DNA from: a phage
DNA: 37,196 nt
Sequence record: PZ445539.1
Strand: one strand, 5' to 3'
The notes below the pieces were generated by a model, which was not told the DNA's origin, made no database searches, and saw nothing but the letters and a program-made list of their open reading frames with translations. The position numbers were made by a program, and so were the translations under genes. Below are positions 1 to 37,196 of the stretch, one piece after another; position 1 is the first letter of the stretch, and each line of letters starts with the position of its first letter.

Positions 1-1515
1 ATGACGCGAGGTGAGCGTGTAATAGCGTTCATTGAGCGCTTTTGCATCGTGCCGGAAGGCAAGCTTATCGGCCAGCCTATGCGGTTGGACCCCTTTCAGA
101 AAGATTTCATCCTGGCGGTTTACGACAATCCAGCCGGAACGGATATGGCGATCCTCAGCATCGCCCGAAAAAACGGTAAAACAGGCTTAATCGCTGGAAT
201 CCTCCTGGCTCACCTGGTGGGGCCTGAAGCGGTCCAGAACACGCAGATTGTCAGCGGCGCACTTAGCCGGGAACAGGCGGCCATCGTTTTTAACCTCGCG
301 GTGAAGATGGTCAACCTGAACCCTAAGCTGCAGGAGATTGTTCACATTACGCCAAGCGGAAAAAAGCTGATTGGTTTGCCGTGTAACGTCGAATACAAGG
401 CTTTATCCGCAGAAGGTAAGACGACGCACGGCCTTTCCCCCATTCTGGCCATTCTTGATGAAACCGGGCAGGTAAGGGGACCACAGGATGATTTTATCGA
501 TGCAATAACTACCGCGCAGGGGGCGCATGAAAACCCGCTGCTGATTGTTATCAGTACGCAGGCAGCAAACGATGCTGACCTGCTGAGCATCTGGATTGAT
601 GATGCGGTCAAATCGAAAGATCCGCACATCGTGTGCCACGTTTATGAAGCGCCAAAAGACGCTGATATCAGTAAACGCGAGTCCTGGCTGGCTGCGAACC
701 CGGCACTGGGAACATTCAGGTCAGAAAAAGACATGGCGCGCCAGGCTGAGAAAGCTGGCCGAATGCCAAGCTTCGAAAACACCTTCCGAAACCTCAACCT
801 CAATCAGCGCGTGTCTACCGTATCGCCGTTTATCTCCCGCAGCGTGTGGGAGCTTTGCGGAGAGATGCCGATTAACACGCCGAGGAAGTGGTACGCGGGG
901 CTGGATCTGTCAGCCAGGAACGACTTAACGGCGCTGGTTATCGCTGGTGAAGCAGATGATGGTGTTTGGGATGTTTTCCCCTTCTTCTGGACACCGCAAA
1001 AAACCCTTGAAGAGCGAACCAAAACGGACCGCGCACCCTATGACGTTTGGGTGAGAGAGGGGCTGCTGCGCACCACGCCAGGCGCTTCGGTGGATTACTC
1101 ATTCGTCGTTGCGGATATCGCTGAAATTATCGGTGATTTCGACCTTACCTCGATGGCTTTTGACCGCTGGCGCATTGACCAGTTCAGGAAGGATGCCGAT
1201 GCCATTGGGCTGAGCCTCCCGCTGGTCGAGTTCGGCCAAGGCTTTAAGGATATGGGGCCAGCTGTAGATACGCTGGAGTCTCTGATGCTTAACGGGCGCG
1301 TGAGGCATGGCATGCACCCCGTATTAACGATGTGTGCTGTGAATGCGGTGGTGGTGAAAGATGCTGCTGGCAACCGCAAGCTCGATAAGTCCAAAGCAAC
1401 AGGCCGTATTGATGGCATGGTCGCAATGACAATGTCCGTTGGTGCTGCTAATGGGGAAGTTACCGAACAGGGTGGTGACTTCGATGACTTCATTTTCCGA
1501 CCGCTGAGCATGTGA
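1..1515 (+). CDS. terminase large subunit (TerL); ORF begins at the window edge so the 5' end may be truncated
   Basis: 504-aa ORF with deviant Walker A-like motif (SIARKNGKTG) near the N-terminus; stop overlaps the portal start; terS lies at the other end of the window. Confidence 0.88.
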   Translation: MTRGERVIAFIERFCIVPEGKLIGQPMRLDPFQKDFILAVYDNPAGTDMAILSIARKNGKTGLIAGILLAHLVGPEAVQNTQIVSGALSREQAAIVFNLAVKMVNLNPKLQEIVHITPSGKKLIGLPCNVEYKALSAEGKTTHGLSPILAILDETGQVRGPQDDFIDAITTAQGAHENPLLIVISTQAANDADLLSIWIDDAVKSKDPHIVCHVYEAPKDADISKRESWLAANPALGTFRSEKDMARQAEKAGRMPSFENTFRNLNLNQRVSTVSPFISRSVWELCGEMPINTPRKWYAGLDLSARNDLTALVIAGEADDGVWDVFPFFWTPQKTLEERTKTDRAPYDVWVREGLLRTTPGASVDYSFVVADIAEIIGDFDLTSMAFDRWRIDQFRKDADAIGLSLPLVEFGQGFKDMGPAVDTLESLMLNGRVRHGMHPVLTMCAVNAVVVKDAAGNRKLDKSKATGRIDGMVAMTMSVGAANGEVTEQGGDFDDFIFRPLSM

Positions 1516-2789
1516 TGGAAGAACCTAAATACACGATTGACCTGCGAACCAATAACGGCTGGTGGGCAAGGCTGCAGTCCTGGTTTGTAGGCGGGCGTTT
1601 AGTCACCCCAAATCAGGGCTCACAGACGGGGCCTGTTTCGGCCCACGGACACCTGGGCGATTCATCCATTAATGATGAACGGATACTGCAAATTTCGACG
1701 GTTTGGCGCTGCGTGAGCCTGATTTCAACGCTCACGGCATGCTTACCGCTTGATGTCTTCGAAACCGACCAGAATGACAACCGCAAAAAAGTGGGTTTGA
1801 GCAATCCGCTGGCGCGACTGCTGCGCTACTCACCGAATCAGTACATGACCGCCCAGGAATTCAGGGAGGCCATGACGATGCAGCTCTGTTTCTACGGTAA
1901 CGCGTATGCACTGGTGGACCGCAACAGCGCGGGTGACGTGATCAGCCTTCTCCCGCTTCAGTCTGCCAATATGGATGTGAAACTCGTCGGAAAAAAAGTG
2001 GTTTATCGCTATCAGCGCGACAGCGAATACGCCGACTTTTCGCAGAGAGAGATTTTTCACCTTAAAGGCTTCGGATTCACCGGGCTGGTCGGCCTGTCCC
2101 CCATTGCTTTTGCCTGTAAATCGGCAGGTGTGGCAGTTGCGATGGAGGACCAGCAGCGAGATTTCTTTGCCAATGGCGCCAAGTCTCCGCAAATCCTCTC
2201 AACCGGAGAAAAAGTGCTAACTGAACAGCAGCGCTCGCAGGTCGAAGAGAACTTCAAAGAGATCGCCGGCGGTCCGGTTAAAAAACGCCTCTGGATTCTG
2301 GAAGCGGGCTTTTCCACATCGGCAATTGGCGTAACGCCGCAGGATGCCGAAATGATGGCGTCCCGAAAATTTCAGGTTAGTGAACTGGCGCGATTCTTTG
2401 GCGTACCGCCTCACCTTGTCGGCGATGTCGAGAAGTCAACGAGCTGGGGATCGGGTATCGAGCAGCAGAATCTCGGCTTCCTGCAGTACACGCTGCAGCC
2501 CTATATCTCCCGGTGGGAAAACAGCATTCAGCGGTGGCTTATTCCTGCTAAGGATGTTGGACGTATTCATGCTGAGCACAATCTCGACGGCCTGCTGAGG
2601 GGCGATTCGGCATCCCGCGCAGCCTTTATGAAGGCAATGGGAGAGGCAGGATTACGCACCATCAATGAAATGCGCCGAACGGACAACCTCCCGCCATTGC
2701 CGGGTGGCGATGTGGCAATGCGCCAGTCGCAATACGTGCCGATCACCGACTTAGGAACCAACAAAGAGCCCCGTAATAACGGGGCTTAA
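1512..2789 (+). CDS. portal protein (HK97-family-like)
   Basis: 425-aa ORF directly after TerL with overlapping start (GTG 1512 or ATG 1515); size and position typical of a portal gene. Confidence 0.85.
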   Translation: MMEEPKYTIDLRTNNGWWARLQSWFVGGRLVTPNQGSQTGPVSAHGHLGDSSINDERILQISTVWRCVSLISTLTACLPLDVFETDQNDNRKKVGLSNPLARLLRYSPNQYMTAQEFREAMTMQLCFYGNAYALVDRNSAGDVISLLPLQSANMDVKLVGKKVVYRYQRDSEYADFSQREIFHLKGFGFTGLVGLSPIAFACKSAGVAVAMEDQQRDFFANGAKSPQILSTGEKVLTEQQRSQVEENFKEIAGGPVKKRLWILEAGFSTSAIGVTPQDAEMMASRKFQVSELARFFGVPPHLVGDVEKSTSWGSGIEQQNLGFLQYTLQPYISRWENSIQRWLIPAKDVGRIHAEHNLDGLLRGDSASRAAFMKAMGEAGLRTINEMRRTDNLPPLPGGDVAMRQSQYVPITDLGTNKEPRNNGA

Positions 2790-2794
2790 TTTTT

Positions 2795-3484
2795 ATGGGG
2801 GCCGTAATGCCTGAAATCGTAAAAACGCTGTCTTTCGACGAGACAGAAATCAAATTCACCGGTGACGGGAAACAGGGGATTTTTGAAGGCTACGCCTCTG
2901 TTTTTAATAACACCGATTCCGATGGCGACATCATTCTGCCAGGGGCGTTTAAAAATGCACTGGCGAACCAGACCCGCAAAGTGGCGATGTTCTTCAACCA
3001 CAAGACGTGGGAGCTACCGGTTGGTAAATGGGACAGCCTGGCCGAAGACGAGAAAGGTCTGTATGTGCGCGGTCAGCTGACCCCAGGACACAGCGGCGCC
3101 ACCGACCTGAAAGCGGCAATGCAGCACGGTACCGTTGAGGGGATGTCGGTTGGCTTTTCTGTTGCGAAAGACGATTACAGCATCACTACCACCGGCCGCA
3201 TTTTTAAGAATATTCAGGCCCTGCGTGAAATCAGCGTTTGTACCTTCCCGGCCAACGAACAGGCTGGCATTGCAGCCATGAAAAGTGTCGATGGCATTGA
3301 AACGATCCGTGATGTGGAGAACTGGCTGAGGGATTCAGTCGGGCTCACCAAATCACAGGCAGTTGGGCTAATAGCCCGGTTTAAGTCAGCGATTCGGAGC
3401 GAGTCCGAGGGCGACGGAAACGAAGCACAAATCAACGCTCTGCTTCAGAGCATCAAATCTTTCCCTTCTAATTTAGGTAATTAA
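2795..3484 (+). CDS. prohead maturation protease (HK97 gp4-like)
   Basis: 229-aa ORF between portal and major capsid genes; alternative start at 2807 has a better GGGGG ribosome-binding site. Confidence 0.8.
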   Translation: MGAVMPEIVKTLSFDETEIKFTGDGKQGIFEGYASVFNNTDSDGDIILPGAFKNALANQTRKVAMFFNHKTWELPVGKWDSLAEDEKGLYVRGQLTPGHSGATDLKAAMQHGTVEGMSVGFSVAKDDYSITTTGRIFKNIQALREISVCTFPANEQAGIAAMKSVDGIETIRDVENWLRDSVGLTKSQAVGLIARFKSAIRSESEGDGNEAQINALLQSIKSFPSNLGN

Positions 3485-3486
3485 TT

Positions 3487-4644
3487 ATGTCTGAACTCGC
3501 TCTCATTCAAAAAGCTATCGAAGAGTCCCAGCAGAAAATGTCCCAGCTTTTCGATGCACAGAAAGCAGAAATCGAAAGCACGGGTAAGGTATCCAAACAG
3601 CTGCAGTCGGACCTTGCGAAAGTACAGGAAGAACTGACCAAATCCGGCACTCGCCTCTTCGATCTTGAGCAGAAACTGGCCTCCGGTGCCGAAAATCCGG
3701 GTGAGAAGAAATCCTTCTCCGAACGCGCAGCGGAAGAACTGCAGAAGTCCTGGAACGGCAGCAAAGGCAGCTTCGAGGCGAAAACCTTTAACAAGTCGCT
3801 GGGCAGTGATTCTGATTCTGCAGGCAGCCTGATCCAGCCGATGCAGGTTCCAGGCATCATCATGCCGGGCCTGCGCCGTCTGACCATTCGTGATCTGCTG
3901 GCGCAGGGCCGAATTTCCAGTAACTCCCTGGAATACGTCCGTGAAGAGGTGTTTACCAATAACGCCGATGTGGTGGCCGAGAAAGCGCTGAAACCTGAAT
4001 CGGATATTACCTTCAGCAAGCAAACCGCGAACGTGAAGACCATCGCCCACTGGGTGCAGGCGTCACGTCAGGTTATGGACGATGCGCCAATGCTGCAGTC
4101 ATACGTCAACAACCGCCTCATGTACGGTCTGGCGCTGAAGGAAGAAGGCCAGCTGCTGAACGGCGACGGTACCGGGGATAACCTGGAAGGTCTGAACAAA
4201 GTGGCAACCGCCTACGACACCTCGCTGAATGCCACTGGCGACACCCGCGCTGACATTATCGCTCACGCCATTTATCAGGTGACCGAATCTGAGTTTAGCG
4301 CTTCCGGTATCGTCCTGAACCCGCGCGACTGGCACAACATTGCGCTGCTGAAAGACAATGAAGGCCGTTATATTTTCGGCGGCCCTCAGGCGTTTACCAG
4401 CAACATCATGTGGGGGCTGCCGGTAGTTCCGACTAAGGCACAGGCCGCCGGTACCTTTACGGTGGGCGGTTTCGATATGGCCTCTCAGGTGTGGGATCGC
4501 ATGGATGCCACCGTGGAAGTCAGCCGTGAAGACCGCGATAACTTCGTGAAAAACATGCTGACCATCCTGTGCGAAGAGCGCCTGGCGCTGGCGCACTATC
4601 GCCCGACGGCAATCATCAAGGGCAGTTTCTCTTCTGGCTCATGA
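3487..4644 (+). CDS. major capsid protein, HK97 fold, with N-terminal delta (scaffold) domain
   Basis: 385-aa ORF; N-terminus MSELALIQKAIEESQQKM... and overall sequence closely match my recollection of HK97 gp5; coiled-coil N-terminal region. Confidence 0.93.
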   Translation: MSELALIQKAIEESQQKMSQLFDAQKAEIESTGKVSKQLQSDLAKVQEELTKSGTRLFDLEQKLASGAENPGEKKSFSERAAEELQKSWNGSKGSFEAKTFNKSLGSDSDSAGSLIQPMQVPGIIMPGLRRLTIRDLLAQGRISSNSLEYVREEVFTNNADVVAEKALKPESDITFSKQTANVKTIAHWVQASRQVMDDAPMLQSYVNNRLMYGLALKEEGQLLNGDGTGDNLEGLNKVATAYDTSLNATGDTRADIIAHAIYQVTESEFSASGIVLNPRDWHNIALLKDNEGRYIFGGPQAFTSNIMWGLPVVPTKAQAAGTFTVGGFDMASQVWDRMDATVEVSREDRDNFVKNMLTILCEERLALAHYRPTAIIKGSFSSGS

Positions 4645-4650
4645 TGGAGG

Positions 4651-4672
4651 GGGCGGGGTGACCCGCCCTTTT
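4651..4672 (+). terminator. intrinsic terminator-like hairpin after the capsid gene
   Basis: GGGCGGG-gtga-CCCGCCC stem-loop followed by TTTT. Confidence 0.55.
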
Positions 4673-4677
4673 AACGT

Positions 4678-5004
4678 ATGGCGATAGATGTTCTGGATGT
4701 AATTGGCCTCAGCCTGTTTAAGCAGCAGATTGAATTTGAGGAAGACGACAGGGACGAGCTGATCACCCTGTACGCTCAGGCAGCTTTTGACTACTGCATA
4801 AGCTGGTGCGATGAACCAGCTTGGAAAGTTGCAGCTGATATTCCTGCAGCCGTTAAGGGCGCCGTTCTCCTTGTCTTTGCTGACATGTTTGAACACCGCA
4901 CCGCGCAAAGCGAAGTACAGCTATATGAGAACGCTGCAGCAGAACGCATGATGTTCATCCATCGCAACTGGCGCGGTAAATCTGAACCTGAGGAGGGCTC
5001 CTGA
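4678..5004 (+). CDS. head-tail connector protein (gp6-like DNA-packaging/connector)
   Basis: 108-aa acidic ORF immediately after the capsid gene; position-based call. Confidence 0.55.
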   Translation: MAIDVLDVIGLSLFKQQIEFEEDDRDELITLYAQAAFDYCISWCDEPAWKVAADIPAAVKGAVLLVFADMFEHRTAQSEVQLYENAAAERMMFIHRNWRGKSEPEEGS

Positions 5005-5342
5005 TGGAACCTGGACGATTCAGGCACAGGGTAAAAATTCTCACCTTCACGACTTCGCGCGATCCATCTGGTCAGCCGGTTGAATCGTGGAGTGGTGGCA
5101 ACCCGGTCCCGGCTGAGGTGAAGGGGATCAGTGGCAGAGAGCAGATGTCTGGTGGCGCGGAAACGGCGCAGGCAACCATTCGCGTCTGGATGCGCTTCAG
5201 GGCTGAGCTGAACGCCTCTTCTCGTCTGGAAGTGCTTAGCGGCCCGTATAAAGGTCAGGTGCTAAATATCATCGGTCCTCCTGTAGCAAATGCGACCGGC
5301 AGTCGTCTGGAAATTCTTTGCAAAACGGGAGCTGAAAAATGA
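5004..5342 (+). CDS. head closure / head-tail adaptor protein
   Basis: 112-aa ORF with start overlapping the previous stop; position in head-tail joining block. Confidence 0.55.
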   Translation: MEPGRFRHRVKILTFTTSRDPSGQPVESWSGGNPVPAEVKGISGREQMSGGAETAQATIRVWMRFRAELNASSRLEVLSGPYKGQVLNIIGPPVANATGSRLEILCKTGAEK

Positions 5343-5788
5343 TTGAGACGAGCCTCGATTTTTCCGGGTTAAATGACATTGCAAAGGATCTGGAAGCGCT
5401 TAGCCGCGCTGAAAACAACAAGGTTCTGCGTGATGCCACGCGCGCCGGTGCCGAAGTGCTTAAGGAAGAAGTGATCGCCCGCGCTCCGGTGCGTACCGGG
5501 AAACTGAAAAAAAACGTGGTGGTGGTTACCCAAAAAAGCCGACGCCGCGGGGAAATTTCTTCTGGTGTCCACATTCGTGGTGTTAACCCGCGCACCGGGA
5601 ACAGCGATAACACGATGAAGGCGAATAACCCGAGAAATGCCTTTTACTGGCGATTCGTTGAAATTGGAACCGTTAACATGCCACCGCACCCTTTCATTCG
5701 TCCCGCGTTCGATGTTCGCCAGGAGCAGGCGACGGAGGTTGCGATCAGGCGCATGAACCAGGCCATTGACGAGGCATTAAGCAAATGA
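5339..5788 (+). CDS. HK97 gp10-like tail component
   Basis: 149-aa ORF, overlapping start and stop codons with neighbours; position-based call. Confidence 0.5.
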   Translation: MIETSLDFSGLNDIAKDLEALSRAENNKVLRDATRAGAEVLKEEVIARAPVRTGKLKKNVVVVTQKSRRRGEISSGVHIRGVNPRTGNSDNTMKANNPRNAFYWRFVEIGTVNMPPHPFIRPAFDVRQEQATEVAIRRMNQAIDEALSK

Positions 5789-6132
5789 CGGAAGAAGATC
5801 TCTATCCTCTGCTGGCGCCGCTGGCCGGAGGGCAGGTTTATCCCTACGTTGCGCCGCTCGGCAGTGACGGGAAGCCTTCAGTCTCGCCGCCCTGGGTAAT
5901 TTTCTCGATTATTACCGACGTGGCCGCAGACGTTCTTTGCGGTCAGGCTGAATCTGCCGTTTCTGTGCAGGTTGATGTCTATTCCAGCACCATCGCTGAA
6001 GCGCGCACGATCAGGAATATGGCGCTTGATGCTCTGCAGGTGCTGAAGCCGGAAAGCATTGTGAAAACGCCGGGCTATGAGCCTGATTTGCGCTATCACC
6101 GGGCAACGCTCGAATTTCAGGTAACCGTTTAA
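5785..6132 (+). CDS. tail completion / tail terminator protein
   Basis: 115-aa ORF immediately upstream of the major tail gene. Confidence 0.45.
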   Translation: MTEEDLYPLLAPLAGGQVYPYVAPLGSDGKPSVSPPWVIFSIITDVAADVLCGQAESAVSVQVDVYSSTIAEARTIRNMALDALQVLKPESIVKTPGYEPDLRYHRATLEFQVTV

Positions 6133-6148
6133 CCTTACCCACCATAAC

Positions 6149-6173
6149 AGACCGCCCCGGCGGTCTTTTTTTA
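6149..6173 (+). terminator. terminator-like hairpin upstream of major tail gene
   Basis: AGACCGC-cccg-GCGGTCT stem-loop followed by TTTTTTT. Confidence 0.55.
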
Positions 6174-6185
6174 TCTGGAGAAACC

Positions 6186-6656
6186 ATGACCAGTAAGTAT
6201 GAAGTTACAAAGGGGATGACCTTTGCCGTCTCCGACGCACCGGTAACCGCTGAGGATTTTAACGCCTCAGGTTTCCCGGGGGCTGGCATTACCTGGCTGG
6301 AAGCGGCCTGTGCAACAAAGGAGATCACCTTCACCGGCGGGCAGAAAGGGGATATCGACGTAACCACGCTTTGCTCAACTGAACAGGAGCAAACCAACGG
6401 CCTCGCCGCGCCAGCTGAAATGAGCATTACCCGTAACTGGGTTGGCGATGAAGCAGCACAGGAGGCACTGCAGACCGCTTACGAAAATGACGAACTGCGC
6501 GCGCTGCGTGTGGTGTTCCCGTCTGGTAATGGTTTCTACGTGCTGGTGGAGGTACGCCAGAGCTCATGGTCTGCTGCAACATCTTCCGTTGTTGGCGCTA
6601 CCTATTCTCTGCGTGTACGCGGCAAACCTAAACGCATCTACGCGTCTGGTTCCTGA
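6186..6656 (+). CDS. major tail (tube) protein
   Basis: 156-aa ORF with GGAG ribosome-binding site, bracketed by hairpins, directly upstream of the G/GT chaperone pair. Confidence 0.7.
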   Translation: MTSKYEVTKGMTFAVSDAPVTAEDFNASGFPGAGITWLEAACATKEITFTGGQKGDIDVTTLCSTEQEQTNGLAAPAEMSITRNWVGDEAAQEALQTAYENDELRALRVVFPSGNGFYVLVEVRQSSWSAATSSVVGATYSLRVRGKPKRIYASGS

Positions 6657-6677
6657 GCGGCTTCGGCCGCTTTTTTT
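6656..6677 (+). terminator. terminator-like hairpin after major tail gene
   Basis: AGCGGC-ttcg-GCCGCT (UUCG tetraloop) followed by TTTTTTT. Confidence 0.6.
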
Positions 6678-6710
6678 ATCCCTTCGATCATGTAACAAGA
6701 GAAAAATGAA

Positions 6711-7112
6711 ATGCCGCAAAAAACATCACAGAATTCATTACGCAACGTGGCGCTTACAGCATCGAAAGCCTATCGCACCAAAGAAGGTATCACGGTCCCT
6801 GAATGGGATGGCGCAAAGGTAACGCTGCGTGAACCCTCTGGCGATGCCTGGGTGAAATTCCGGGAGATCGTTAATCCCCAGCTCGCCGAGGGCGAAGAGG
6901 CACCGACGCTGACGGAGGCGGAAAAGTTTCTGCGTAACAAAGAGGCTGATGTGGTTCTGTTTATTGACGTTCTGCTGGATGAAAACGGCGAGCGAGTATT
7001 CAGCGATGAGGATCAGGAGCAGGTATCTAAAATCTATGGTCCTGTGCACTCCCGCCTGCTGGCTCAGGCCCTCAACCTCGGAATGAGCCAGGAAGAAGCG
7101 GGAAAGCCGTAA
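6711..7112 (+). CDS. tail assembly chaperone (lambda gpG-like)
   Basis: 133-aa acidic ORF ending GCG GGA AAG CCG TAA; contains slippery heptamer G GGA AAG at 7100-7106. Confidence 0.75.
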   Translation: MPQKTSQNSLRNVALTASKAYRTKEGITVPEWDGAKVTLREPSGDAWVKFREIVNPQLAEGEEAPTLTEAEKFLRNKEADVVLFIDVLLDENGERVFSDEDQEQVSKIYGPVHSRLLAQALNLGMSQEEAGKP

Positions 7113-7399
7113 AGCAGCCGCTGACCTTTTTCCTGATGTCATTGGCGCTACGGATGGGGCGCACTCTTCACGAACTGCGCCAGACCATGACCGCCAGCGA
7201 GCTCAAAATGTGGATCGAGTTCGACCGCATCAGTCCGATTGGTGACTGGCGCGCCGATGCACAGGCGGCGCAGATCTCCGTTGCAATGCTGAACTCTCAG
7301 GGTGGGAAATTCACCATTCCTGACGTGATGCTGAAGTGGGGAGAGCAGGAAGAGGTCGCAGAAGTCTCAGAACTCGAAAATTGGATATCCAGTCTTTGA
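7100..7399 (+). CDS. tail assembly protein T-like extension, expressed as G-T fusion by programmed -1 frameshift
   Basis: The -1 frame is open from 7100 through ORF 7136..7399 with no stop; heptamer identical to lambda G-T slip site; directly upstream of tape measure gene. Confidence 0.65.
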   Translation, partial: GKAVKQPLTFFLMSLALRMGRTLHELRQTMTASELKMWIEFDRISPIGDWRADAQAAQISVAMLNSQGGKFTIPDVMLKWGEQEEVAEVSELENWISSL

Positions 7400-7400
7400 C

Positions 7401-7422
7401 GCCCGCGGCTGCGGGCTTTTTT
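7401..7422 (+). terminator. terminator-like hairpin before tape measure gene
   Basis: GCCCGC-ggct-GCGGGC followed by TTTTTT. Confidence 0.55.
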
Positions 7423-7433
7423 ATGGGTGAAAT

Positions 7434-10400
7434 ATGGCAACGCTGCGCGAGCTAATCATCAAAATTTCGGCGAACTCATCTTCTTTCCAGTCTGAGATCG
7501 CCAGAGCGTCCCGCATGGGAACCGATTACTACCGCACTATGGAACAGGGCGGGAAAAAAGCTGCAGCGGCCACGCGTGAAACTCAGCGCTCTTTGGCTGA
7601 CCTGAACTCTCAGCTTGCAACAGTACGTTCCTCTGCTGCCGGGCTTGCCGGTGCGTGGGCTGGTGCATTTGCCACGCATCAGCTGATTCAGTTTGCCGAC
7701 ACGTGGAACCAGTTGAATGGGCGTCTTCGCCTTGCGTCCTCTTCCAGTGAGGATTACGTGCAATCCCAGCGTGTACTGATGGAGATTAGCCAGCGGACCG
7801 GAACATCCCTTGAGGCAAACAGCAACCTGTACAGCAGAATTGCGCAGTCCCTGCGTGATGCCGGTTACGCTTCTGCTGACGTCGCAAAAGTTACGGAAAC
7901 CGTAGCAACCTCACTGAAGCTGTCTGGCGCCAGTACCGAAGAGGCGAGTTCTGTTATCACCCAGCTTAGCCAGGCACTTGGCTCAGGCGTTTTGCGAGGC
8001 GAAGAATTTAACTCCATCATGGAGAACGGCGGCCGCCTGGCGAAACTGCTGGCTGATGGGCTGGGTACCAGTGTTGGTGGCCTGCGAAATATGGCCAACA
8101 ACGGCGAGCTGACGACCAACAAGATCGTCCCGCTGCTGACCAACGTTGAGATCCTCCGTAAAGAATTCGACACCCTTCCTGCTTCCATCAGCGGATCTGC
8201 ACAGAAAGTGCAAAACGCCTTCCTTGCATGGGTTGGCGGGGCGAACGATGCGGTCGGCGCATCCTCAACGCTTTCCGGCGTGCTGGATGGTCTTGCGAAT
8301 AACATCGATGATTTGGCAAATACAGCCGGTATTCTGGTTGGTGTTGGCCTCGCCCGTTATTTCGGCAACATGGTTGGCAGCGTCGCTCAGTCAACCCGGG
8401 CAGTGCTCGCTAATACGGCCGCCGAGGTCGCACTGGCTCAGGCTCAGGTTCGTGGCGCTCAGGTTAGCGTTGCTGCTGGTCGCCAGGCTGTTTATCGCGC
8501 TCAACAGGCGCGCGCAGCGGCGACGAGTATTGAGGCTCAGATTGTCGCTGAGCGTAATCTTGCTGCTGCTCAGGCATCACTGAATACTGCGCTTGCTGGC
8601 AGGACTTCGGCCGTTAATAACCTCACCAATACAGCCTCGGTGATGTCCCGCCTGGGTAGTGGCGTTCTTGGCATTCTCGGTGGCTGGCCTGGAGTGATTA
8701 TCGGTGCTGGCGCTGCGATGTATGGCCTTTATCAACATACCCAGCAGGTGCACCGTGAGGCGGTAGGTTTTGCCAACAACCTTGACGAGATCAACACCAA
8801 GCTCCAGCAGATGTCGGTGCTTGGCCTGCGTTCGACCGCGGCTGATGCCCGTACATCTTTGCAGGCGCAAAAACAGGACCTGGCCGACCTCGACTCTCAG
8901 ATCGCGAAGGTGAAAGACAGCCTTAAGGCGGTTGACCAAATCCAGCAGGACTATAACCGCCATCCGACGCTGACCCTGATCAATACTTTCATGGACCAGG
9001 CCGACATCACGGCCAAAAATATCGAGCTGACCGATAAGCTGAACCAGCTGGAGTACCAGCGCGAACAGGCAGCCTCAAAAGTCGAGCAAACGCAGAAGCT
9101 GGTAAACCAGGCCAGCGATCTGGCCACGCAAAAGGCTATCGAACAGGCTGGCGCCGTCTCTATCCTGAAAGGTGCGTATGACCTGCTTAACCGCTCAATG
9201 TCAGCGACCGCTGGCGCCAAGCCGCCGCAATATGCCGGGCCCGTCGTTTCACTGGCGAACGCAACGCCTCAACAGCAAACCGCACTGGAGCGCTCACGCC
9301 GAGATAACGAGCTGGCCAGCCTAAGCGGTTTAGAGAAACTTCATCAGCAGCACGTGTATGAAGCAGAAGACCTGAAGCTGACGGGAGCACTTTACACCCA
9401 GTACATTTACAACAAGGATCAGGCAGCCAAAAAAGATGCAGCGGCTGCGGAGGCAAAAAAAACCTCTACCGCCGCCTCGAAAGCACAGAGTAAAGCCGAG
9501 CGTGAAGCGGCCAGCACCGCCGAACAGTATTCCCGGAAAATGGCCGATCTGAGTGTGGCTATCGACGTGCAACGCGTCAGGGCGACGGAAGGTGAAAAAG
9601 CCTCGGAGCTTTACGCTGCATCGCACCAGGCAGGCACTAAATGGACCGACGAGCAGCGCAAGGCGATCCAGGCATCATCAGCAGAGCTGGCAAAATGGAC
9701 GCAAAAAGCCGACGAGAACGTGCGCAAGCAGCGCGAACAAGCTGATGCCCTGAAGGATTTAACTGAAGCGGCCCGAAAGTTCAGGGATGAGGCGACGCTG
9801 ACAACCGAAACCGCAGGCATGAGTGATCGCCAGCGCAGCCGGTTCGACGAGACGCAACAGATCGACCGTGTTTTTGCTAAAGCAGGTGGCGACAAAAGCA
9901 CCCAGGCTGTGATAGCTCGAAGCGAAGCCCTTGATGCTCTGGATAAGAAATACAAGGCTATTGCAGCAGCTGAAGCGGATTGGATGTCCGGTGTATCACG
10001 CGGCTATGCCAACTGGTTTGATGAAATCAGTAACGTATCCGGAACGGTTTCTGACGGGGTGAAAACCACACTCGACAGCGCGTTTGGTAACGTCACCTCA
10101 ATGCTCGAAGGCAATAAAGTTAGCTGGAAATCGTGGGGTATTTCTGTCCTGCAGATCATTGAAAAAGTGGCGCTGCAGATGGCGGTGGTCAGCGCGATGG
10201 GTGGTGCCTCTTCCGGTTCTGGCATTTTTGGCTCACTCATCGGCAGTGTGGGCAGTTTCTTCGGGGGCGGGGCGGGAGCATCAGCCAGCACCGGTACAGC
10301 GGTTTCCAGTTACGGCTCGAGCTTCCAGTTTAATGCCAAAGGCGGCGTTTATGACTCTCCATCCCTGAGCGCTTTCAGTAATGGGATCGTCAGAAACCCA

Positions 10401-10721
10401 ACAATGTTCGCTTTCGCAAAAGGCGGGGCCGGAATCATGGGCGAGGCTGGCCCGGAGGCAATCATGCCGCTGACCCGCGCGCCGGATGGTTCTCTCGGTG
10501 TTCGTGCGGTCGGAGGTGGCGGCGGTCAGCCCGTATCGTCGGCGCCACAGGTTTATATCACTATCGATGGCAACGGCAACACCTCAACGCAAACCTCACC
10601 AGGCCTTGAGCAATTTGGTGCCGAAGTCGGGAAATTTGTCGATCAGCGATATAAGCAGAATGTAATGCGTGATATCCGCCCCGGCGGTGACATCTGGAAC
10701 GCAATGAAAGGAACCCGATAA
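7434..10721 (+). CDS. tail tape measure protein
   Basis: 1095-aa ORF, Ala/Gln-rich coiled-coil character, Gly-rich C-terminal region; follows G/GT pair. Confidence 0.9.
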   Translation: MATLRELIIKISANSSSFQSEIARASRMGTDYYRTMEQGGKKAAAATRETQRSLADLNSQLATVRSSAAGLAGAWAGAFATHQLIQFADTWNQLNGRLRLASSSSEDYVQSQRVLMEISQRTGTSLEANSNLYSRIAQSLRDAGYASADVAKVTETVATSLKLSGASTEEASSVITQLSQALGSGVLRGEEFNSIMENGGRLAKLLADGLGTSVGGLRNMANNGELTTNKIVPLLTNVEILRKEFDTLPASISGSAQKVQNAFLAWVGGANDAVGASSTLSGVLDGLANNIDDLANTAGILVGVGLARYFGNMVGSVAQSTRAVLANTAAEVALAQAQVRGAQVSVAAGRQAVYRAQQARAAATSIEAQIVAERNLAAAQASLNTALAGRTSAVNNLTNTASVMSRLGSGVLGILGGWPGVIIGAGAAMYGLYQHTQQVHREAVGFANNLDEINTKLQQMSVLGLRSTAADARTSLQAQKQDLADLDSQIAKVKDSLKAVDQIQQDYNRHPTLTLINTFMDQADITAKNIELTDKLNQLEYQREQAASKVEQTQKLVNQASDLATQKAIEQAGAVSILKGAYDLLNRSMSATAGAKPPQYAGPVVSLANATPQQQTALERSRRDNELASLSGLEKLHQQHVYEAEDLKLTGALYTQYIYNKDQAAKKDAAAAEAKKTSTAASKAQSKAEREAASTAEQYSRKMADLSVAIDVQRVRATEGEKASELYAASHQAGTKWTDEQRKAIQASSAELAKWTQKADENVRKQREQADALKDLTEAARKFRDEATLTTETAGMSDRQRSRFDETQQIDRVFAKAGGDKSTQAVIARSEALDALDKKYKAIAAAEADWMSGVSRGYANWFDEISNVSGTVSDGVKTTLDSAFGNVTSMLEGNKVSWKSWGISVLQIIEKVALQMAVVSAMGGASSGSGIFGSLIGSVGSFFGGGAGASASTGTAVSSYGSSFQFNAKGGVYDSPSLSAFSNGIVRNPTMFAFAKGGAGIMGEAGPEAIMPLTRAPDGSLGVRAVGGGGGQPVSSAPQVYITIDGNGNTSTQTSPGLEQFGAEVGKFVDQRYKQNVMRDIRPGGDIWNAMKGTR

Positions 10722-10723
10722 CT

Positions 10724-11062
10724 ATGGCCATTGAAACTTTCACCTGGTGCCCACGAATTAACGCGGAGGCTGATACAAATTTCCGCGTCAGGAAAGCACA
10801 GTTTGGTGATGGATATGAGCAGGTTTCAGGGGATGGATTGAACACCAGAACCCAGCAATGGACGCTCAACTTCACTGGCAACGAAACCTACATTTCTGCC
10901 ATTAAATCTTTTCTCGACAGGCATGAAGGAACGAAAGCCTTTCAATGGAAGCCACCGCTCGAACCTTTGGGTTTGTATCGTTGCGAAACGTATAAACCCA
11001 CCGGGCTTGGCGCGGGGAAATTCAACCTTGAAGCAACATTCATCCAGGCATTTAAACCATGA
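10724..11062 (+). CDS. minor tail protein (lambda gpM-like)
   Basis: 112-aa ORF directly after tape measure; size and order as in lambda M. Confidence 0.75.
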   Translation: MAIETFTWCPRINAEADTNFRVRKAQFGDGYEQVSGDGLNTRTQQWTLNFTGNETYISAIKSFLDRHEGTKAFQWKPPLEPLGLYRCETYKPTGLGAGKFNLEATFIQAFKP

Positions 11063-11817
11063 GCTTAAACGCAGATTATCAAAAGCTGGAATCCGGAAAC
11101 GATGTTCGTCTGATTGAGGTGGACGGTTCTTCCTTTGGGCTAACGGACGTTCTCCGCTTTCACAATTACAGCATTCCCCACACAGAAGCGGAAATCATCG
11201 CCGCTGGTGGGGATGAGTCCAAGCTTCCGGCGAAACCAATCTGGTGGCAGGGAAATGAATATGCCGCCTGGCCATATCAACTGGAAGGTCTGGAGAAATC
11301 AACCAGTGGGAGCAATGCAACGCCATCCCTGACGGTTGCGAACATCGAAAGCTCCATTTCAGCCCTGTGTCTTGCGTATGACGATCTGCTGCAGGCGAAA
11401 GTCACTATTCACGACACAAAAGAGAAATATCTCGATGCCAGAAATTTCGCAGACGGCAACCCCACAGCAGACCCGACTCAGGAAAAGCTGCAGGTCTGGT
11501 ATATCGACGGGAAAACGGGCGAGCTTGCCGGCGAAACCGTTGAATTTGTTCTGTCCAGCCCGATGGATCTGCAGGGGCAAATGATCCCGACGCGACAGCT
11601 TCATTCCCTGTGTACCTGGTGCATCCGGAATAAATATCGTACCGGCGACGGCTGCGACTATGCCGGCACCCGCTATTTCGAAAAAAACAACAACCCGGTA
11701 AGCGATCCGTCGCTGGATGAATGCAACGGCACGCTGACGGCCTGCAAACTCCGATTCGGCGAAAATAACGAACTCTCGTTTGGTGGCTTCCCGGGCACGT
11801 CTTTGATCAGGAGTTGA
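11059..11817 (+). CDS. minor tail protein (lambda gpL-like)
   Basis: 252-aa ORF with C-terminal Cys cluster (CTWC...C...C) as in gpL. Confidence 0.75.
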   Translation: MSLNADYQKLESGNDVRLIEVDGSSFGLTDVLRFHNYSIPHTEAEIIAAGGDESKLPAKPIWWQGNEYAAWPYQLEGLEKSTSGSNATPSLTVANIESSISALCLAYDDLLQAKVTIHDTKEKYLDARNFADGNPTADPTQEKLQVWYIDGKTGELAGETVEFVLSSPMDLQGQMIPTRQLHSLCTWCIRNKYRTGDGCDYAGTRYFEKNNNPVSDPSLDECNGTLTACKLRFGENNELSFGGFPGTSLIRS

Positions 11818-11818
11818 T

Positions 11819-12529
11819 ATGCGTCAGAAAACCATCGATGCGATTATGGCGCATGCTGCAGCTGAATATCCTCGCGAGTGTTGCGGCGTGGTAGCGCAGA
11901 AAAGCCGTGTTGAACGTTATTTCCCGTGCCGGAATCTTGCCGCGGCGCCGGAGGACAATTTTGTCCTTTGCCCCGAAGACTATACAACTGCTGAGGACTG
12001 GGGAACGGTGATCGCCATCGTTCACAGTCATCCTGACGCCACGACACAACCGAGCGAATTGGATAAAGCGCAATGCGATGCAACGCTTTTGCCGTGGCAC
12101 ATCGTGAGCTGGCCTGAGGGGGATTTACGCACCATCCAGCCGCGTGGGGAGCTGCCGCTGCTGGAGCGTCCGTTTGTGCTTGGACACTTCGACTGCTGGG
12201 GGCTGGTAATGAGCTATTTCCGGCAAACGCATGGTATCGAGCTCCACGATTACCGGGTGGATTATCCCTGGTGGGAAAACGACTATCCGGACAACTTCTA
12301 TCAGGATTGCTGGTATGAGTGCGGATTCCGTGAATTCGACGGGCCACCGAAACCCGGCGATATGGTGATTATGCAGGTCCAGGCCGATAAGTGGAATCAC
12401 GCGGGAATTCTGCTGGAGGGAAATATGCTGCTGCACCACCTGTACGGACATCTGAGCCAGCGCGTGCCGTATGGTGGCTACTGGCAGGAAAGGACGATGA
12501 AGGTTCTACGATATAAGGACCTGTGCTAA
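11819..12529 (+). CDS. tail tip assembly protein (lambda gpK-like; JAMM/MPN plus NlpC/P60-type domains)
   Basis: 236-aa ORF with JAMM-like motif AIVHSHPD and C-terminal Cys/His region. Confidence 0.75.
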   Translation: MRQKTIDAIMAHAAAEYPRECCGVVAQKSRVERYFPCRNLAAAPEDNFVLCPEDYTTAEDWGTVIAIVHSHPDATTQPSELDKAQCDATLLPWHIVSWPEGDLRTIQPRGELPLLERPFVLGHFDCWGLVMSYFRQTHGIELHDYRVDYPWWENDYPDNFYQDCWYECGFREFDGPPKPGDMVIMQVQADKWNHAGILLEGNMLLHHLYGHLSQRVPYGGYWQERTMKVLRYKDLC

Positions 12530-12560
12530 CCTTTTGTAAAACAAAAAAGGGGTTAGGGAT

Positions 12561-12908
12561 ATGAGGAAATTTCTTTCGATATTGGCGTGTAGCCTGATTA
12601 TTGTTGGTTGCTCACCTTCGGAAAAGGATTTTATTGACATGGGGGAATCCTTAGTTAAAGACACCCTCAAAGATCCTGATAGCGCTAAGTTTGAATCATT
12701 TTTCCGTGATTTCGGAGAAAATACTGGATATGTTTGCGGTTATGTGAATGCTAAAAATTCATACGGCGCATATACGGGTAAAAAACCATATTATGTGCGG
12801 ATTGAGGTCAAAGATGGAAAGGTCAATGATCATGGACCAATCATCATTATTAATGACCAAGACCAAAAGAAAATTGATTCATATGAGTCAATCTGTCAAA
12901 AGGACTGA
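12561..12908 (+). CDS. lipoprotein, unknown function (moron)
   Basis: Signal peptide with lipobox LIIVGC; strong ribosome-binding site; AT-rich codon usage unlike flanking tail genes. Confidence 0.7.
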   Translation: MRKFLSILACSLIIVGCSPSEKDFIDMGESLVKDTLKDPDSAKFESFFRDFGENTGYVCGYVNAKNSYGAYTGKKPYYVRIEVKDGKVNDHGPIIIINDQDQKKIDSYESICQKD

Positions 12909-12914
12909 TGTGCG

Positions 12915-13250
12915 ATGAAAAAGATTATCCTCCCAATTTTTATCTTTCTGCTGATGGGGTGTTCTGTTTCCTCACTGGAAGAACAAAAACCTATTCTATC
13001 AGAGCATTCAACAAAAACTGTTGAGGAAGTTAACCGTTGCCTTGCTCCTAAATGGGTGGAACTACGATCTTCAAGCTCCAGCATACCCACTGAGTCAGGA
13101 TACAAAATCACAGCATCTGACGATATATTCGGTGCTCTTTCAGTAGTGAATATCGATAAATCAGCGACAGGCGGAAGCGATATAAAGGTTTATGCCGTCG
13201 CGAAAGGTTGGAACGACCACTGGGCTACGGCCGCCAGATCATGTCTTTGA
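12915..13250 (+). CDS. lipoprotein, unknown function (moron)
   Basis: Signal peptide with lipobox LLMGC; AT-rich; followed by terminator. Confidence 0.7.
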   Translation: MKKIILPIFIFLLMGCSVSSLEEQKPILSEHSTKTVEEVNRCLAPKWVELRSSSSSIPTESGYKITASDDIFGALSVVNIDKSATGGSDIKVYAVAKGWNDHWATAARSCL

Positions 13251-13269
13251 AAAAACATAAATAATCCAA

Positions 13270-13291
13270 GCCACCTTCGGGTGGCTTTTTT
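13270..13291 (+). terminator. intrinsic terminator after lipoprotein moron
   Basis: GCCACC-ttcg-GGTGGC hairpin followed by TTTTTT. Confidence 0.65.
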
Positions 13292-13306
13292 GTATGGAGA
13301 ATAAAA

Positions 13307-13906
13307 ATGCCAGAGGTCATGACCCGAATTGAACTCGGCGGTGTTTTGGGTAAAACCTACGGAAAGGTTCACCATCGATTAATACGCACAACCGCTGAGG
13401 CCATCAACTCTCTTACGAAAACTATAAACGGGCTGGAGAAATTCCTGATCACCAGCAAAGCAAGGGGCCTGACTTACGCCGTTTTTAAAGATAAAAAAAA
13501 TATCGGAAAGGATGATTTTGGTTTTCCGGTAACCGGTGAGGTTATTCGAATTGTCCCGGTAGTAATCGGAAGTAAAAAAGCCGGTGTATTACAGACAATT
13601 CTTGGCGCCGTGCTCGTCGTTGTTGGGGTAGCCATTGGCTATTTCTCAGGTGGCACTCTATCAGCGGTGGGGTACGGGGCTGCGAAATTCGGTGCAGCCA
13701 TGATGCTGGGAGGTGTTGTCCAAATGCTATCTCCTCAACCTGCAGGTCTGGCCAGCAAACAAAGCGCTGACAACCGTGCATCATACGCATTCGGTGGTGT
13801 AACAAACACCGCGGCGCAAGGCTACCCGGTACCGCTCCTTTATGGCCGTCGGCGAATAGGCGGAGCGATTATTTCTGCCGGAATTTATGTCGAAGATCAG
13901 CAGTAG
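13307..13906 (+). CDS. tail assembly protein (lambda gpI-like)
   Basis: 199-aa ORF with hydrophobic Gly-rich central segment; position between K-like and J-like genes. Confidence 0.75.
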   Translation: MPEVMTRIELGGVLGKTYGKVHHRLIRTTAEAINSLTKTINGLEKFLITSKARGLTYAVFKDKKNIGKDDFGFPVTGEVIRIVPVVIGSKKAGVLQTILGAVLVVVGVAIGYFSGGTLSAVGYGAAKFGAAMMLGGVVQMLSPQPAGLASKQSADNRASYAFGGVTNTAAQGYPVPLLYGRRRIGGAIISAGIYVEDQQ

Positions 13907-13925
13907 ATAACTAACCTTTTTTCTG

Positions 13926-13948
13926 GCCACCTTCGGGTGGCTTTTTTT
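13926..13948 (+). terminator. second copy of the same hairpin, before J-like gene
   Basis: Identical GCCACC-ttcg-GGTGGC stem-loop followed by TTTTTTT. Confidence 0.55.
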
Positions 13949-13959
13949 ATGGGCGCAAT

Positions 13960-17496: not shown

Positions 17497-17792
17497 TGCC
17501 ACAGGGTTTGCAGTGTTGGGATAGTGCAGGGCGGGTAGCAGTGGATTTAAGCGATTACGCGATTCGTTACATGGGCAGCGCAACGGTTTCGCTTGCTTCA
17601 GGAGAGACGTCAAAAAATGTCGCTTTTTCTGGCGCAACGCAGGACGGGACGTTTGTCACAATCGTTTCAACTGGCGTGACTGTAAACGAGTATTTTTGCC
17701 GCGCTTATAACGGCGGCTTTACTCTCTACTATCTCCCCACGGGTGGAAGTGCCGCAATCACTCTCAATGTTGAGGTTTATAACTTTCAATGA
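17490..17792 (+). CDS. hypothetical protein, tail-distal region
   Basis: 100-aa ORF overlapping the J stop; no recognisable motif. Confidence 0.4.
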   Translation: MVMPQGLQCWDSAGRVAVDLSDYAIRYMGSATVSLASGETSKNVAFSGATQDGTFVTIVSTGVTVNEYFCRAYNGGFTLYYLPTGGSAAITLNVEVYNFQ

Positions 17793-18430: not shown

Positions 18431-18757
18431 CACGGGAGGAACGCGTGGATAATGAGTCGCGATCATATCTTGTTTCACGCCCTTTGCTGAATTAAAGCGA
18501 TAAACCACATCCAGCTTATCCGTTTTTTTATAGCAAATATTACTTAACCGTTTATTAATATGGCGGCTGAATATTCCGTTGCTACTGTCTGAAATAATAT
18601 CCACCTCTCTGGTGGCGCAGTCGATATTTACGTGAATATCACCACCCAGCGATAAACGAGCGGCATCAACCGGGTAATCCATCTGGAATGCGTTATCTGT
18701 GTGTGTGTTCGTACATCCAGCCACCAGAAAAAGCGCTGCAGCAAATAAAAGTTTCAT
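18395..18757 (-). CDS. lipoprotein, unknown function (antisense moron)
   Basis: Signal peptide with classic lipobox LVAGC; AT-rich; convergent with the upstream tail gene. Confidence 0.6.
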   Translation of the reverse strand: MKLLFAAALFLVAGCTNTHTDNAFQMDYPVDAARLSLGGDIHVNIDCATREVDIISDSSNGIFSRHINKRLSNICYKKTDKLDVVYRFNSAKGVKQDMIATHYPRVPPVSNSNKLSDGDS

Positions 18758-18883
18758 TTCAACATTCCTGTTTATGCGGGAACTTCCATTTTATTTGAGT
18801 TTAAAAAATAGTCAGATTGATATGAGCGATCAATTTTACACGATTGATCGCTTTTAACGATCGTTATTATCGTGAGGTAGTTC

Positions 18884-20847: not shown

Positions 20848-20882
20848 TGGTGGAGCTGGCGGGAGTTGAACCCGTGTCCGAA
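20848..20882 (-). mobile_element. ssrA: attP core: 3'-terminal fragment of ssrA (tmRNA) carried by the phage
   Basis: Reverse complement reads GGACACGGGTTCAACTCCCGCCAGCTCCACCA, matching from memory the T-arm/acceptor 3' end of enterobacterial tmRNA; identity stops abruptly upstream; integrase gene adjacent. Confidence 0.7.
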
Positions 20883-33736: not shown

Positions 33737-33950
33737 AAAACCTCCATCTTATGTGTTGATACCATTAAGGAAAAACCATCCGAGAATAGCCTTCAAATCA
33801 GCCCGTAATCAAATCTATTAGCTCATTGTTTGATCTACAAGCGCATCGCACGCGCACATCAAAGAAAGACTTTCAGCTGTGAGCCTGGGCAAACCGCTAA
33901 CTTTCGGCGGCTTTGCCGTGCGACAGGCTCACGCCTAAAAGGAAAATCAA

Positions 33951-35408: not shown

Positions 35409-35980
35409 AGTTTGTTGTGGTTGGCCATCACTCTCGCATAGGTCATGCGCAACGACTTGCCGCGCTGCTGGATGCTCATCTGCTTATTGATGACGGTGAC
35501 CACGGCGCGAACTGGAATCATCGCCGCGCGCTGGAGTGGGCTGCATGCCAACCCTGCAGGGTAGTGGTGTTGGAAGACGACGCGCTTCCTGTGCAGGGCT
35601 TCACCGATAAGGTAACTGAATGGCTGGTGCGCTTCCCTGAAGAGATGCTGAGCTTTTACCTCGGTACCGGCCGACCGCCGCAGTATCAGAAAGAGATTGC
35701 CGGAATGCTGGTTGAATCAGACAGAGTAAACGCTGATTACCTTGTTCTTAGCAAACTGATTCACGGCGTATGTTACAGCCCTCCTCAGGGCAGGCTGGCG
35801 CGCATGCTTAACGCATGGAATAAAACGCTGGCAGCTGATTACGCCGTTGGTGAGGCATTCGGTGGCCGGGTTATTTATCCGTGTTACTCGCTGGTGGATC
35901 ACGCTGACCTCCCGACGGTTGAGCGTCACCCTGACAACGAGCCGAGGACGGAACGCCGCCGCGCATGGAGACTGGCATGA
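35390..35980 (+). CDS. hypothetical protein, possibly GT-A-like transferase
   Basis: 196 aa; strong AGGAGG ribosome-binding site; FVVVGH...VVVLEDDA pattern reminiscent of a GT-A DxD core; weak call. Confidence 0.4.
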   Translation: MVETQVKFVVVGHHSRIGHAQRLAALLDAHLLIDDGDHGANWNHRRALEWAACQPCRVVVLEDDALPVQGFTDKVTEWLVRFPEEMLSFYLGTGRPPQYQKEIAGMLVESDRVNADYLVLSKLIHGVCYSPPQGRLARMLNAWNKTLAADYAVGEAFGGRVIYPCYSLVDHADLPTVERHPDNEPRTERRRAWRLA

Positions 35981-36318
35981 ACAAAGAGCCCCGCGTATAT
36001 GGCAGCCGATGGGATAAGGCCCGTCTGCGTTTCCTGCAGCAGCACCCACTATGTGTGATGTGCGAGCAGCAGGGGCGCATTACCCCAGCAACGGTGGTTG
36101 ACCATATTGAGCCCCACAAACTCAAAGATGCGCTTAAGTCAGGTAACGCGCTGGCCATATCGAAAGCACAGCTCCTGTTCTGGAGTAAAGAGAACTGGCA
36201 GCCACTGTGCAAAGCGCATCACGACTCAACGAAACAGAGAATGGAGAAGAGCGGCGCGGTAATAGGCTGTGATGCCAACGGCTACCCGCTCGATCCTGCG
36301 TCTCACTGGAGCACGTAA
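35977..36318 (+). CDS. HNH endonuclease (packaging-associated, HK97 gp74-like position)
   Basis: CxxC...DHIEPH...N...CKAHHD HNH motifs; immediately upstream of terS region. Confidence 0.85.
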   Translation: MNKEPRVYGSRWDKARLRFLQQHPLCVMCEQQGRITPATVVDHIEPHKLKDALKSGNALAISKAQLLFWSKENWQPLCKAHHDSTKQRMEKSGAVIGCDANGYPLDPASHWST

Positions 36319-36554
36319 TGAAAGACCTCATCATTGAATACCGCGACGGTAAGTTTGTTCAGCTGGCGATTGATGGCGTGGAGATGAAGCACGTAACGTC
36401 TATCCAGTTCTCCCACACCGTAGGCGAGAACGTACCGACACTGACCGTCTCAGGGCATGTGTGGTCCGAGTACGGGAAAGGCGATCAGAAACTCGAGCAG
36501 GTTGATAAACAGACGTCCTGGAATGATGAAGTGAAGCGGATAATGAATGAGTGA
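36318..36554 (+). CDS. hypothetical protein
   Basis: 78-aa ORF coupled to the HNH stop. Confidence 0.4.
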   Translation: MKDLIIEYRDGKFVQLAIDGVEMKHVTSIQFSHTVGENVPTLTVSGHVWSEYGKGDQKLEQVDKQTSWNDEVKRIMNE

Positions 36555-36704
36555 AATCATTTCAAATGCAATGAAATCAAATGAGAACGAATCGCATCAG
36601 GGCAGGGGGGGGGATCAAATCTTCAAAACCTTTGCCCCAAATGACCGCCGCCAAAGTTTGATTTTAACGCTAACCCGATTTTTTTAGTTTTAAGGTGTTG
36701 ACAT

Positions 36705-37190
36705 ATGGCAGATAAACGAACCCGTTCCGACAGTTCGGCGGCAGCGGTTCAGGCCATGAAAAATGCAGCAGTGGACACCATCGATCCTCCGTCCCATGCA
36801 GGTTTGGAAAAAAAAGCCGAACCATTCTGGCATGACAATATCAGATCGAAAGCTCTGGACAGCTGGACGCCAGCCGACCTTCTGGCCGCCGTAGAACTGG
36901 CAAATAATCAGCTCTATATCACCGTTTTACGCAGAGATTTGCGTAAAGAAGAACGTGCACGCGGTGAAGCGAGAAATGAGGCGCTGATTAAAAACCTCCG
37001 CAAACAAATTCCTGATTTGCAGAGAACTATCCTGGCTCAGCGCCGCGACCTACAGATCCATTCCCACGCAACCAACGGCGAAAGCCGCGACCAGAAGAAA
37101 CGCAACCAGAATGATCGTGATGCACGAAATACCAAAACCGAGCATCAGGACCAGGACGACAACCTGATCGCCTTTCCCAAGCACGGATAA
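36705..37190 (+). CDS. terminase small subunit
   Basis: 161-aa ORF with basic coiled C-terminal half; preceded by HNH gene; TerL lies at the other window edge. Confidence 0.75.
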   Translation: MADKRTRSDSSAAAVQAMKNAAVDTIDPPSHAGLEKKAEPFWHDNIRSKALDSWTPADLLAAVELANNQLYITVLRRDLRKEERARGEARNEALIKNLRKQIPDLQRTILAQRRDLQIHSHATNGESRDQKKRNQNDRDARNTKTEHQDQDDNLIAFPKHG

Positions 37191-37196
37191 AAGACT

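Follow-up and report, generated by a model that had tools for sequence, protein, structure and literature searches.

A phage sequence that starts on its large terminase gene is very probably the reoriented complete genome of Escherichia phage LMessi

The phage sequence PZ445539.1, 37,196 nucleotides long and referred to here in its entirety as the window, opens with the start codon of terL, the gene of the large terminase subunit, and ends 6 nt beyond terS, the gene of the small one. A reading made from the sequence alone had taken these ends for the opening of a circularly permuted genome, or of a virion genome, between the two genes. Our main finding is that the window is, with high confidence, the complete genome of LMessi, a temperate siphovirus of the HK97 kind, and that a circularised assembly was rotated and strand-flipped to the terL ATG, which is a matter of convention and not of biology. 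Phage, packaging system and integration site each belong to a familiar type, and what is known of HK97-like phages is left unchanged. The value of the result lies mainly in quality control: a window that starts exactly on terL can be recognized as a reoriented complete genome, and the topology read from such windows (their ends, their 'permutation', the positions of their att sites) reflects a database convention rather than packaging biology.

The window and its GenBank counterpart

A megablast comparison with phage records returned Escherichia phage LMessi (PP925823.1), with 100% identity on the opposite strand. This record is labeled 'complete genome' and describes an isolated phage of 37,205 bp, with E. 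coli as host and rotten tomato, USA, as source. Direct comparison after rotation and reverse complementation showed that 37,180 of the 37,196 window bases are identical in the record, in an initial block of 36,643 bases and a final one of 537. The two sequences represent the same genome, and differ by their strand, their opening, and a short segment of 25 nt in the record versus 16 nt in the window, which is examined below.

The two sequences are opened at different points. Base 33736 of PP925823.1 corresponds to window base 1 on the opposite strand, and base 1 of the record, at window position 33736, is the A of the ATG of a hypothetical coding sequence (CDS; window 33359-33736, minus strand). 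The window runs across the breakpoint of the record, and the record runs across the breakpoint of the window. As each version crosses the opening of the other, both are permutations of one closed circle; and as the record starts on the ATG of the hypothetical CDS and the window on that of terL, both origins were set on gene starts. The sequence-only reading had described a complete, unintegrated genome of about 37.2 kb devoid of host flanks, and this description stands: the counterpart is a complete phage genome, and no host genes are annotated in it.

The terS-terL junction and the choice of origin

Both terminase subunits are close to those of HK97. TerL is identical to HK97 gp2 at 504 of 504 residues and matches the structure PDB 6Z6D, and TerS is identical at 151 of 161 residues (94%) to HK97 TerS (gp1) of PDB 8POP and 6Z6E; the TAA stop codon of terS occupies positions 37188-37190. 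PP925823.1 annotates terS as a 144-residue product from an internal start (record 33743-34177); the 161-residue open reading frame from the ATG at 36705 fits HK97 gp1 over its full length.

When the end of the window is joined to its start, the 45 nt that span the junction (the last 26 and the first 19) recur without a mismatch where terS meets terL in HK97, in the prophage that E. coli UMNK88 carries at ssrA, in phages SaltyDalty and ECP1, and in Aeromonas phage AsXd-1. In pairwise BLAST against the UMNK88 chromosome and the AsXd-1 record, window bases 37196 and 1 map to neighboring bases in each. In PP925823.1 the two genes lie 6 nt apart, with the same spacer. The two window ends share no direct repeat of 6 nt or longer. 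The earlier reading had placed the end of terS 6 nt before the window end and TerL at its first base, and had predicted that joining the ends would yield a contiguous terS-terL operon; the open reading frames and the junctions of HK97 and its four relatives agree with it on both counts, and the source record contains nothing between the genes beyond the spacer, that is, no intervening sequence of the kind that would have spoken against it.

The probability that a break falls exactly on the first base of terL, in forward orientation, is about 1 in 74,000 (2 x 37,196), which indicates that the start point was chosen deliberately. The style of locus tags and product names in PP925823.1 is presumably that of Pharokka. 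Among the documented options of Pharokka/Dnaapler is one that rotates phage genomes to their large terminase gene (PMC13338908). Automated reorientation of this kind is the most likely reason for the window's start at the terL ATG; the exact ATG start and the style of the record suggest this choice of tool. Records of related phages are opened variously, at cos, at the terS ATG or arbitrarily, and the origin of a record is thus a matter of convention in this group.

The cos site and the predicted virion ends

The ends of the HK97 genome are 10-nt 3' overhangs; TerS binds 15 bp located at +15 to +29 from the cut, and the HNH protein gp74 is a cofactor that stimulates cos cleavage by TerL (PMC9410871, PMC11331095). 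The length of the overhang is given as '10-nt' in a figure legend of PMC9410871, and once as '12-nt' in its discussion; we took it as 10 nt, since the ends of the AsXd-1 record support this value.

The cos of HK97 is intact in the window, at 36641-36670. The HK97 record ends with ...ATGACCGCCGCCAAA and starts with GTTTGAATTT, and its right and left ends, when joined, read ...CCCCAAATGACCGCCGCCAAA followed by GTTTGAATTTAACGCTAACCCGATTTTTTT, a sequence present at window positions 36632-36685 with one substitution. The window sequence includes ATGACCGCCGCCAAAGTTTG, unlike the 25-nt version of PP925823.1. The cos pattern occurs once in the window, and the region from -110 to +120 around it is nearly identical to the joined HK97 ends. 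Moreover, the proteins and binding site that act on cos in HK97 have their counterparts here: the TerS binding site is identical, and the HNH protein encoded just upstream is identical to gp74 at 99 of 102 residues (97%).

The ends of other records fall at the same place. Those of HK97, HK75 and HK022 all begin exactly at window base 36656. The linear AsXd-1 record ends with ...AAATGAC and starts with GTTTGATTTT; what it lacks is exactly CGCCGCCAAA (36646-36655), which was found in all relatives, and such a gap is what the removal (blunting) of a 10-nt 3' overhang would leave. Taken together, the ends of these four records map to 36645/36646 and 36655/36656. By homology, nicks are predicted at 36655/36656 on the top strand and at 36645/36646 on the bottom strand. 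As the terminase and cos are of the HK97 cos type, LMessi virions should have unique ends: a map drawn from the virion would begin at the top-strand nick, 36655/36656, which lies upstream of terS and about 540 nt before the window end, and there should be no circular permutation of the packaging type.

No significant structure emerged when the cos region was folded as single-stranded DNA. About 40 nt upstream of the cos cut, at 36605-36613, nine G residues follow one another; this run is kept in HK97 and its relatives with a length of 7 to 9, and falls where packaging-termination signals are expected.

The only difference between the window and PP925823.1 lies at cos. The window has 16 nt at 36644-36659 (ACCGCCGCCAAAGTTTG...) where the record has 25 nt (CGCGTTAAAATCAAACTTTGGCGGCG, at about 34277-34301), and this accounts for the 9-nt difference in length, which we had first expected at the terS-terL junction or at the ends of the record. 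HK97, Fostie, SaltyDalty, ECP1 and the UMNK88 prophage all agree with the window in this segment. The record version is made of the reverse complement of the 10-nt overhang and the initial 15 nt of the left end, after which comes the left end itself, starting at its sixth base; a palindrome with a 10-bp stem results (GCGTTAAAAT...ATTTTAACGC). It looks like a fold-back chimera at the left cos end that was taken up into the assembly, and is a probable GenBank error; the window probably derives from a corrected version. If it is a fold-back chimera, it would be an indirect sign that the sequenced DNA had a physical end at this place.

Two further propositions, separate from each other, are both considered improbable. 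The first is that the anomaly of the record stems from a real subpopulation of left cos ends that had folded back by hairpin priming. At this place the record reads along the bottom strand of the left end, its natural 10-nt 3' overhang included, and then continues into the complement of that same stretch. On this view, a 3' overhang would be able to fold onto its own strand and prime its extension, either in vivo or during library preparation. The second is that the leader at 33841-33953, described in the last section, is an undescribed cis-regulatory or module-boundary element.

The attP core and predicted integration at ssrA

The ssrA gene is an established common target of integration, for example for E. 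coli islands. The window contains a 27-nt core that copies its 3' end; this core occurs once, for 0.00 occurrences expected by chance. The ssrA-like stretch reaches position 20882 with one mismatch, and 35 nt match the 3' end of the transfer-messenger RNA (tmRNA) model. As expected for a fragment, no whole tmRNA was detected by ARAGORN or at the Rfam gathering threshold; a permissive Rfam scan alone revealed the ssrA 3' fragment, and the 5' part of that match was padding. The core adjoins the gene of a tyrosine integrase, downstream of it and on the same strand, an arrangement that qualifies the integrase as one targeting ssrA. A predicted CDS for a hypothetical protein of 196 residues (20295-20885, plus strand), which follows the tail fibre gene, ends inside the core, its last codons being the ssrA fragment read in reverse complement; upon integration, the C-terminus of its product would be altered or lengthened.

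E. coli UMNK88 (NC_017641.1, about 3167942-3204600) carries at ssrA a prophage that is collinear with the window; the structural, packaging, lysis and int regions of the two are 91-94% identical at the nucleotide level, and the integrase genes themselves 96%. This prophage differs from the window in being integrated and flanked by host genes (smpB-ssrA on one side, ypjA on the other), and in its replication and immunity genes and some of its tail-fibre genes. The order is smpB, ssrA (attL), tail fibre, tail and head genes, terL, terS, HNH, glycosyltransferases, lysis, Q, replication and immunity, int (attR), ypjA. The same 27 nt are present at both attL and attR. Of the two arms that border the core in the window, that on the int side matches attR, and the other, phage side matches attL. 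The window therefore holds an intact attP, with P arm, core and P' arm contiguous, as a free phage genome should.

The layout of a lysogen, with the core at both ends of the prophage and ssrA restored, is found in UMNK88, and is thus established for the relative. There, terS adjoins terL between the two att sites, in agreement with the sequence-only reading, which had expected an integrated form to carry att sites at its ends and terS directly upstream of terL. That reading had also located attP, as an ssrA fragment next to int, in the interior of the window, and this is where the single core and the integrase gene lie. The layout of a host-flanked prophage is not that of the window: attP is internal, the ends fall within the terS-terL operon, and no host genes are annotated.

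A chromosome may nevertheless mimic this arrangement. If two prophages were integrated in tandem at ssrA, an excerpt running from terL of the first copy to terS of the second would have the content of the window, and its 'attP' would be a hybrid junction; by sequence alone, one tandem unit and a circle are indistinguishable. Tandem arrays do place an attP-like junction within a chromosome, and E. coli DX6 (NZ_CP126345.1, about 1202175-1204041) offers an example, in which a tail-fibre/DinI segment, the attP core region of the window and a related integrase gene are contiguous. The tail genes upstream of the DinI gene are of a different kind in DX6 (baseplate J type), which suggests tandem or mosaic elements at one site. 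The existence of such a junction inside the DX6 chromosome means that an intact attP alone is no proof of a free genome. However, a tandem excerpt is a very unlikely source of the window, whose sequence is that of an isolated-phage record opened at another point, whose length is exactly one genome unit, whose start is exactly the terL ATG, and which contains no host gene.

Weaker alternatives and points of reservation

Three further explanations can be dismissed more rapidly. Under headful (pac) packaging, virions would be truly circularly permuted and terminally redundant, and any opening would be valid; circular assemblies with arbitrary starts are obtained from pac phages as well, and the window is devoid of a terminal repeat that would mark fixed ends. 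We give almost no credence to this scheme, as TerL is 100% identical to a cos terminase, that of HK97; TerS, the gp74-like HNH protein, the cos cleavage sequence and the TerS site are conserved, and a fixed cleavage site is thus at hand where a pac phage has none; and the AsXd-1 record ends at cos, short of exactly the 10-nt overhang. That the physical ends of the virion lie in the 6-nt terS-terL spacer, which would make the window a true linear map, has in its favor the sole coincidence of the window ends with the spacer, and is scarcely tenable: HK97, whose ends have been mapped to another place, and a prophage carry the same spacer between the same flanks, uninterrupted; terminal repeats and an overhang signature are lacking; the first base of the window is exactly that of a start codon; and PP925823.1 runs straight through the spacer. 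Finally, a plasmid-like, extrachromosomal and non-integrating circular prophage would account for the circular topology and the intact attP, but is hardly conceivable for an element with an integrase and a perfect 27-bp ssrA core and with a close relative integrated at ssrA; no partition or plasmid-replication genes are annotated, although no dedicated search for them was made.

The sequence-only reading was thus right in seeing a complete free genome whose ends join as terS-terL, and mistaken as to the nature of the opening. Its 'circularly permuted' does not hold biologically, since unique ends are expected from a cos and a terminase of the HK97 type, and its virion genome opened between terS and terL is contradicted by the predicted virion opening at 36655/36656.

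Several points weigh against our own conclusion that the window is the reoriented genome of LMessi. The reorientation software was deduced by us and is not documented for the record. None of the relatives spans window 33736/33737, in a region unique to LMessi except for a short conserved element further on, and closure of the circle at this point would therefore rest on the window itself. The placement of the nicks at cos is based on homology. The 37,205-bp record and the window differ by the 25 versus 16 nt at cos, and the window may be a later version of the record or a corrected assembly. A literature search on LMessi and PP925823 returned nothing relevant.

Three maps of one genome

In its natural history, the phage would pass through three maps, and the opening of the window matches none of them. 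In the virion, the TerS nonamer would bind at +15 to +29 and TerL, together with the gp74-like HNH protein, would cut cos, giving a linear molecule with the overhang CGCCGCCAAA. After injection, the cos ends would anneal into a circle, the form that the window represents. The integrase, if active, would then recombine the 27-bp core of attP with the identical 3' end of the host ssrA, and the order in the resulting prophage would be ssrA-attL, tail fibre to head genes, terL, terS, cos, HNH, lysis, Q, replication, immunity and int-attR. The positions of the relevant features in the window are given in Table 1.

Table 1. Coordinates of packaging, integration and structural features in the window
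Feature	Position	Strand	Evidence or remark
terL, large terminase, 504 residues	1..1515	+	ATG at base 1; Pfam TerL_ATPase and TerL_nuclease, PHROG 9 (phrog_9)
Head and tail module	1515..20269	+	PP925823.1 annotation mapped to the window; Pfam Phage_portal, Phage_capsid
attP core, 27 nt, 3' end of E. coli ssrA, CGGGTTCAACTCCCGCCAGCTCCACCA	20848..20874	-	Exact match
Tyrosine integrase	21007..22254	-	Arm-DNA-binding, SAM-like and catalytic domains
Opening of PP925823.1	33736/33737		Record base 1 is window 33736, opposite strand; window contiguous across
HNH endonuclease, HK97 gp74 homologue	35977..36318	+	Pfam HNH, PHROG 2323; just upstream of cos and terS
cos cohesive end, predicted 10-nt 3' overhang CGCCGCCAAA	36646..36655	+	Homology to HK97 ends
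TerS binding site (HK97 +15 to +29), CTAACCCGATTTTTT	36670..36684	+	Identical to HK97; site defined experimentally for HK97 (PMC11331095)
terS, small terminase, 161 residues	36705..37190	+	phrog_5601, E 1e-80, full length
terS-terL spacer AAGACT, 6 nt, last window bases	37191..37196	+	Same in HK97, UMNK88, SaltyDalty, ECP1, AsXd-1

Relatives and gene content

HK97 (Byrnievirus HK97, Hendrixvirinae), the archetypal cos phage with 3' overhangs, shares with LMessi TerL, TerS, the gp74 HNH protein, the cos cleavage sequence, the TerS site and the terS-terL junction, and is 92% identical at the nucleotide level over most head and tail genes. The early, immunity, replication and integration modules differ; LMessi has a pair of glycosyltransferase genes and should integrate at ssrA, and its genome is smaller (37.2 kb versus 39.7 kb, or 94% of the HK97 size), with a GC content of 51.9%. 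The arrangement glycosyltransferase-HNH-cos-terS-terL is the same in ECP1 (Wongtaivirus), HK542, mEp390, Fostie, SaltyDalty and Cronobacter phage ENT39118. AsXd-1 (MH178096.1), whose listed host is Aeromonas, is 95-97% identical to LMessi at the nucleotide level over the packaging and head genes.

Each module of an HK97-like temperate phage is present once in the window: packaging, head, tail, tail fibre, integration, early-left and repressors, as well as primase/helicase, a Q-like antiterminator, holin/endolysin/spanin, the glycosyltransferase pair and HNH. Portal, prohead protease and HK97-fold major capsid genes directly follow terL, and the module continues with connectors, tail tube, tape measure, tip proteins and tail fibre; it is 92-94% identical at the nucleotide level to those of HK97, HK542, mEp390 and mEp506.

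Between the lysis genes and the HNH gene lie the genes of a glycosyltransferase (485 residues, with a weak GT2 match) and of a 'glucosyltransferase' (196 residues), at 33951-35980 on the plus strand. HK97 lacks this pair, a candidate cargo module that LMessi shares with ECP1, mEp390, HK542, ENT39118 and the UMNK88 prophage. The pair is preceded by a non-coding element of about 105 nt with sharp boundaries (33841-33953, plus strand), which runs into the ribosome-binding site of the glycosyltransferase gene. A Rfam scan of 33300-34100 gave no match. The element is unannotated in most matching records and is found, with 91-96% identity, directly upstream of unrelated genes in several lambdoid phages, namely phi80 (ORF x171.28), mEp213, mEp043, FSL SP-016 and Fraca, as well as in 47 E. 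coli chromosomes, where the gene that follows encodes a tail tip fibre in one case. Folding yields a long hairpin, with a free energy of -41.9 kcal/mol and a z-score of -3.4.

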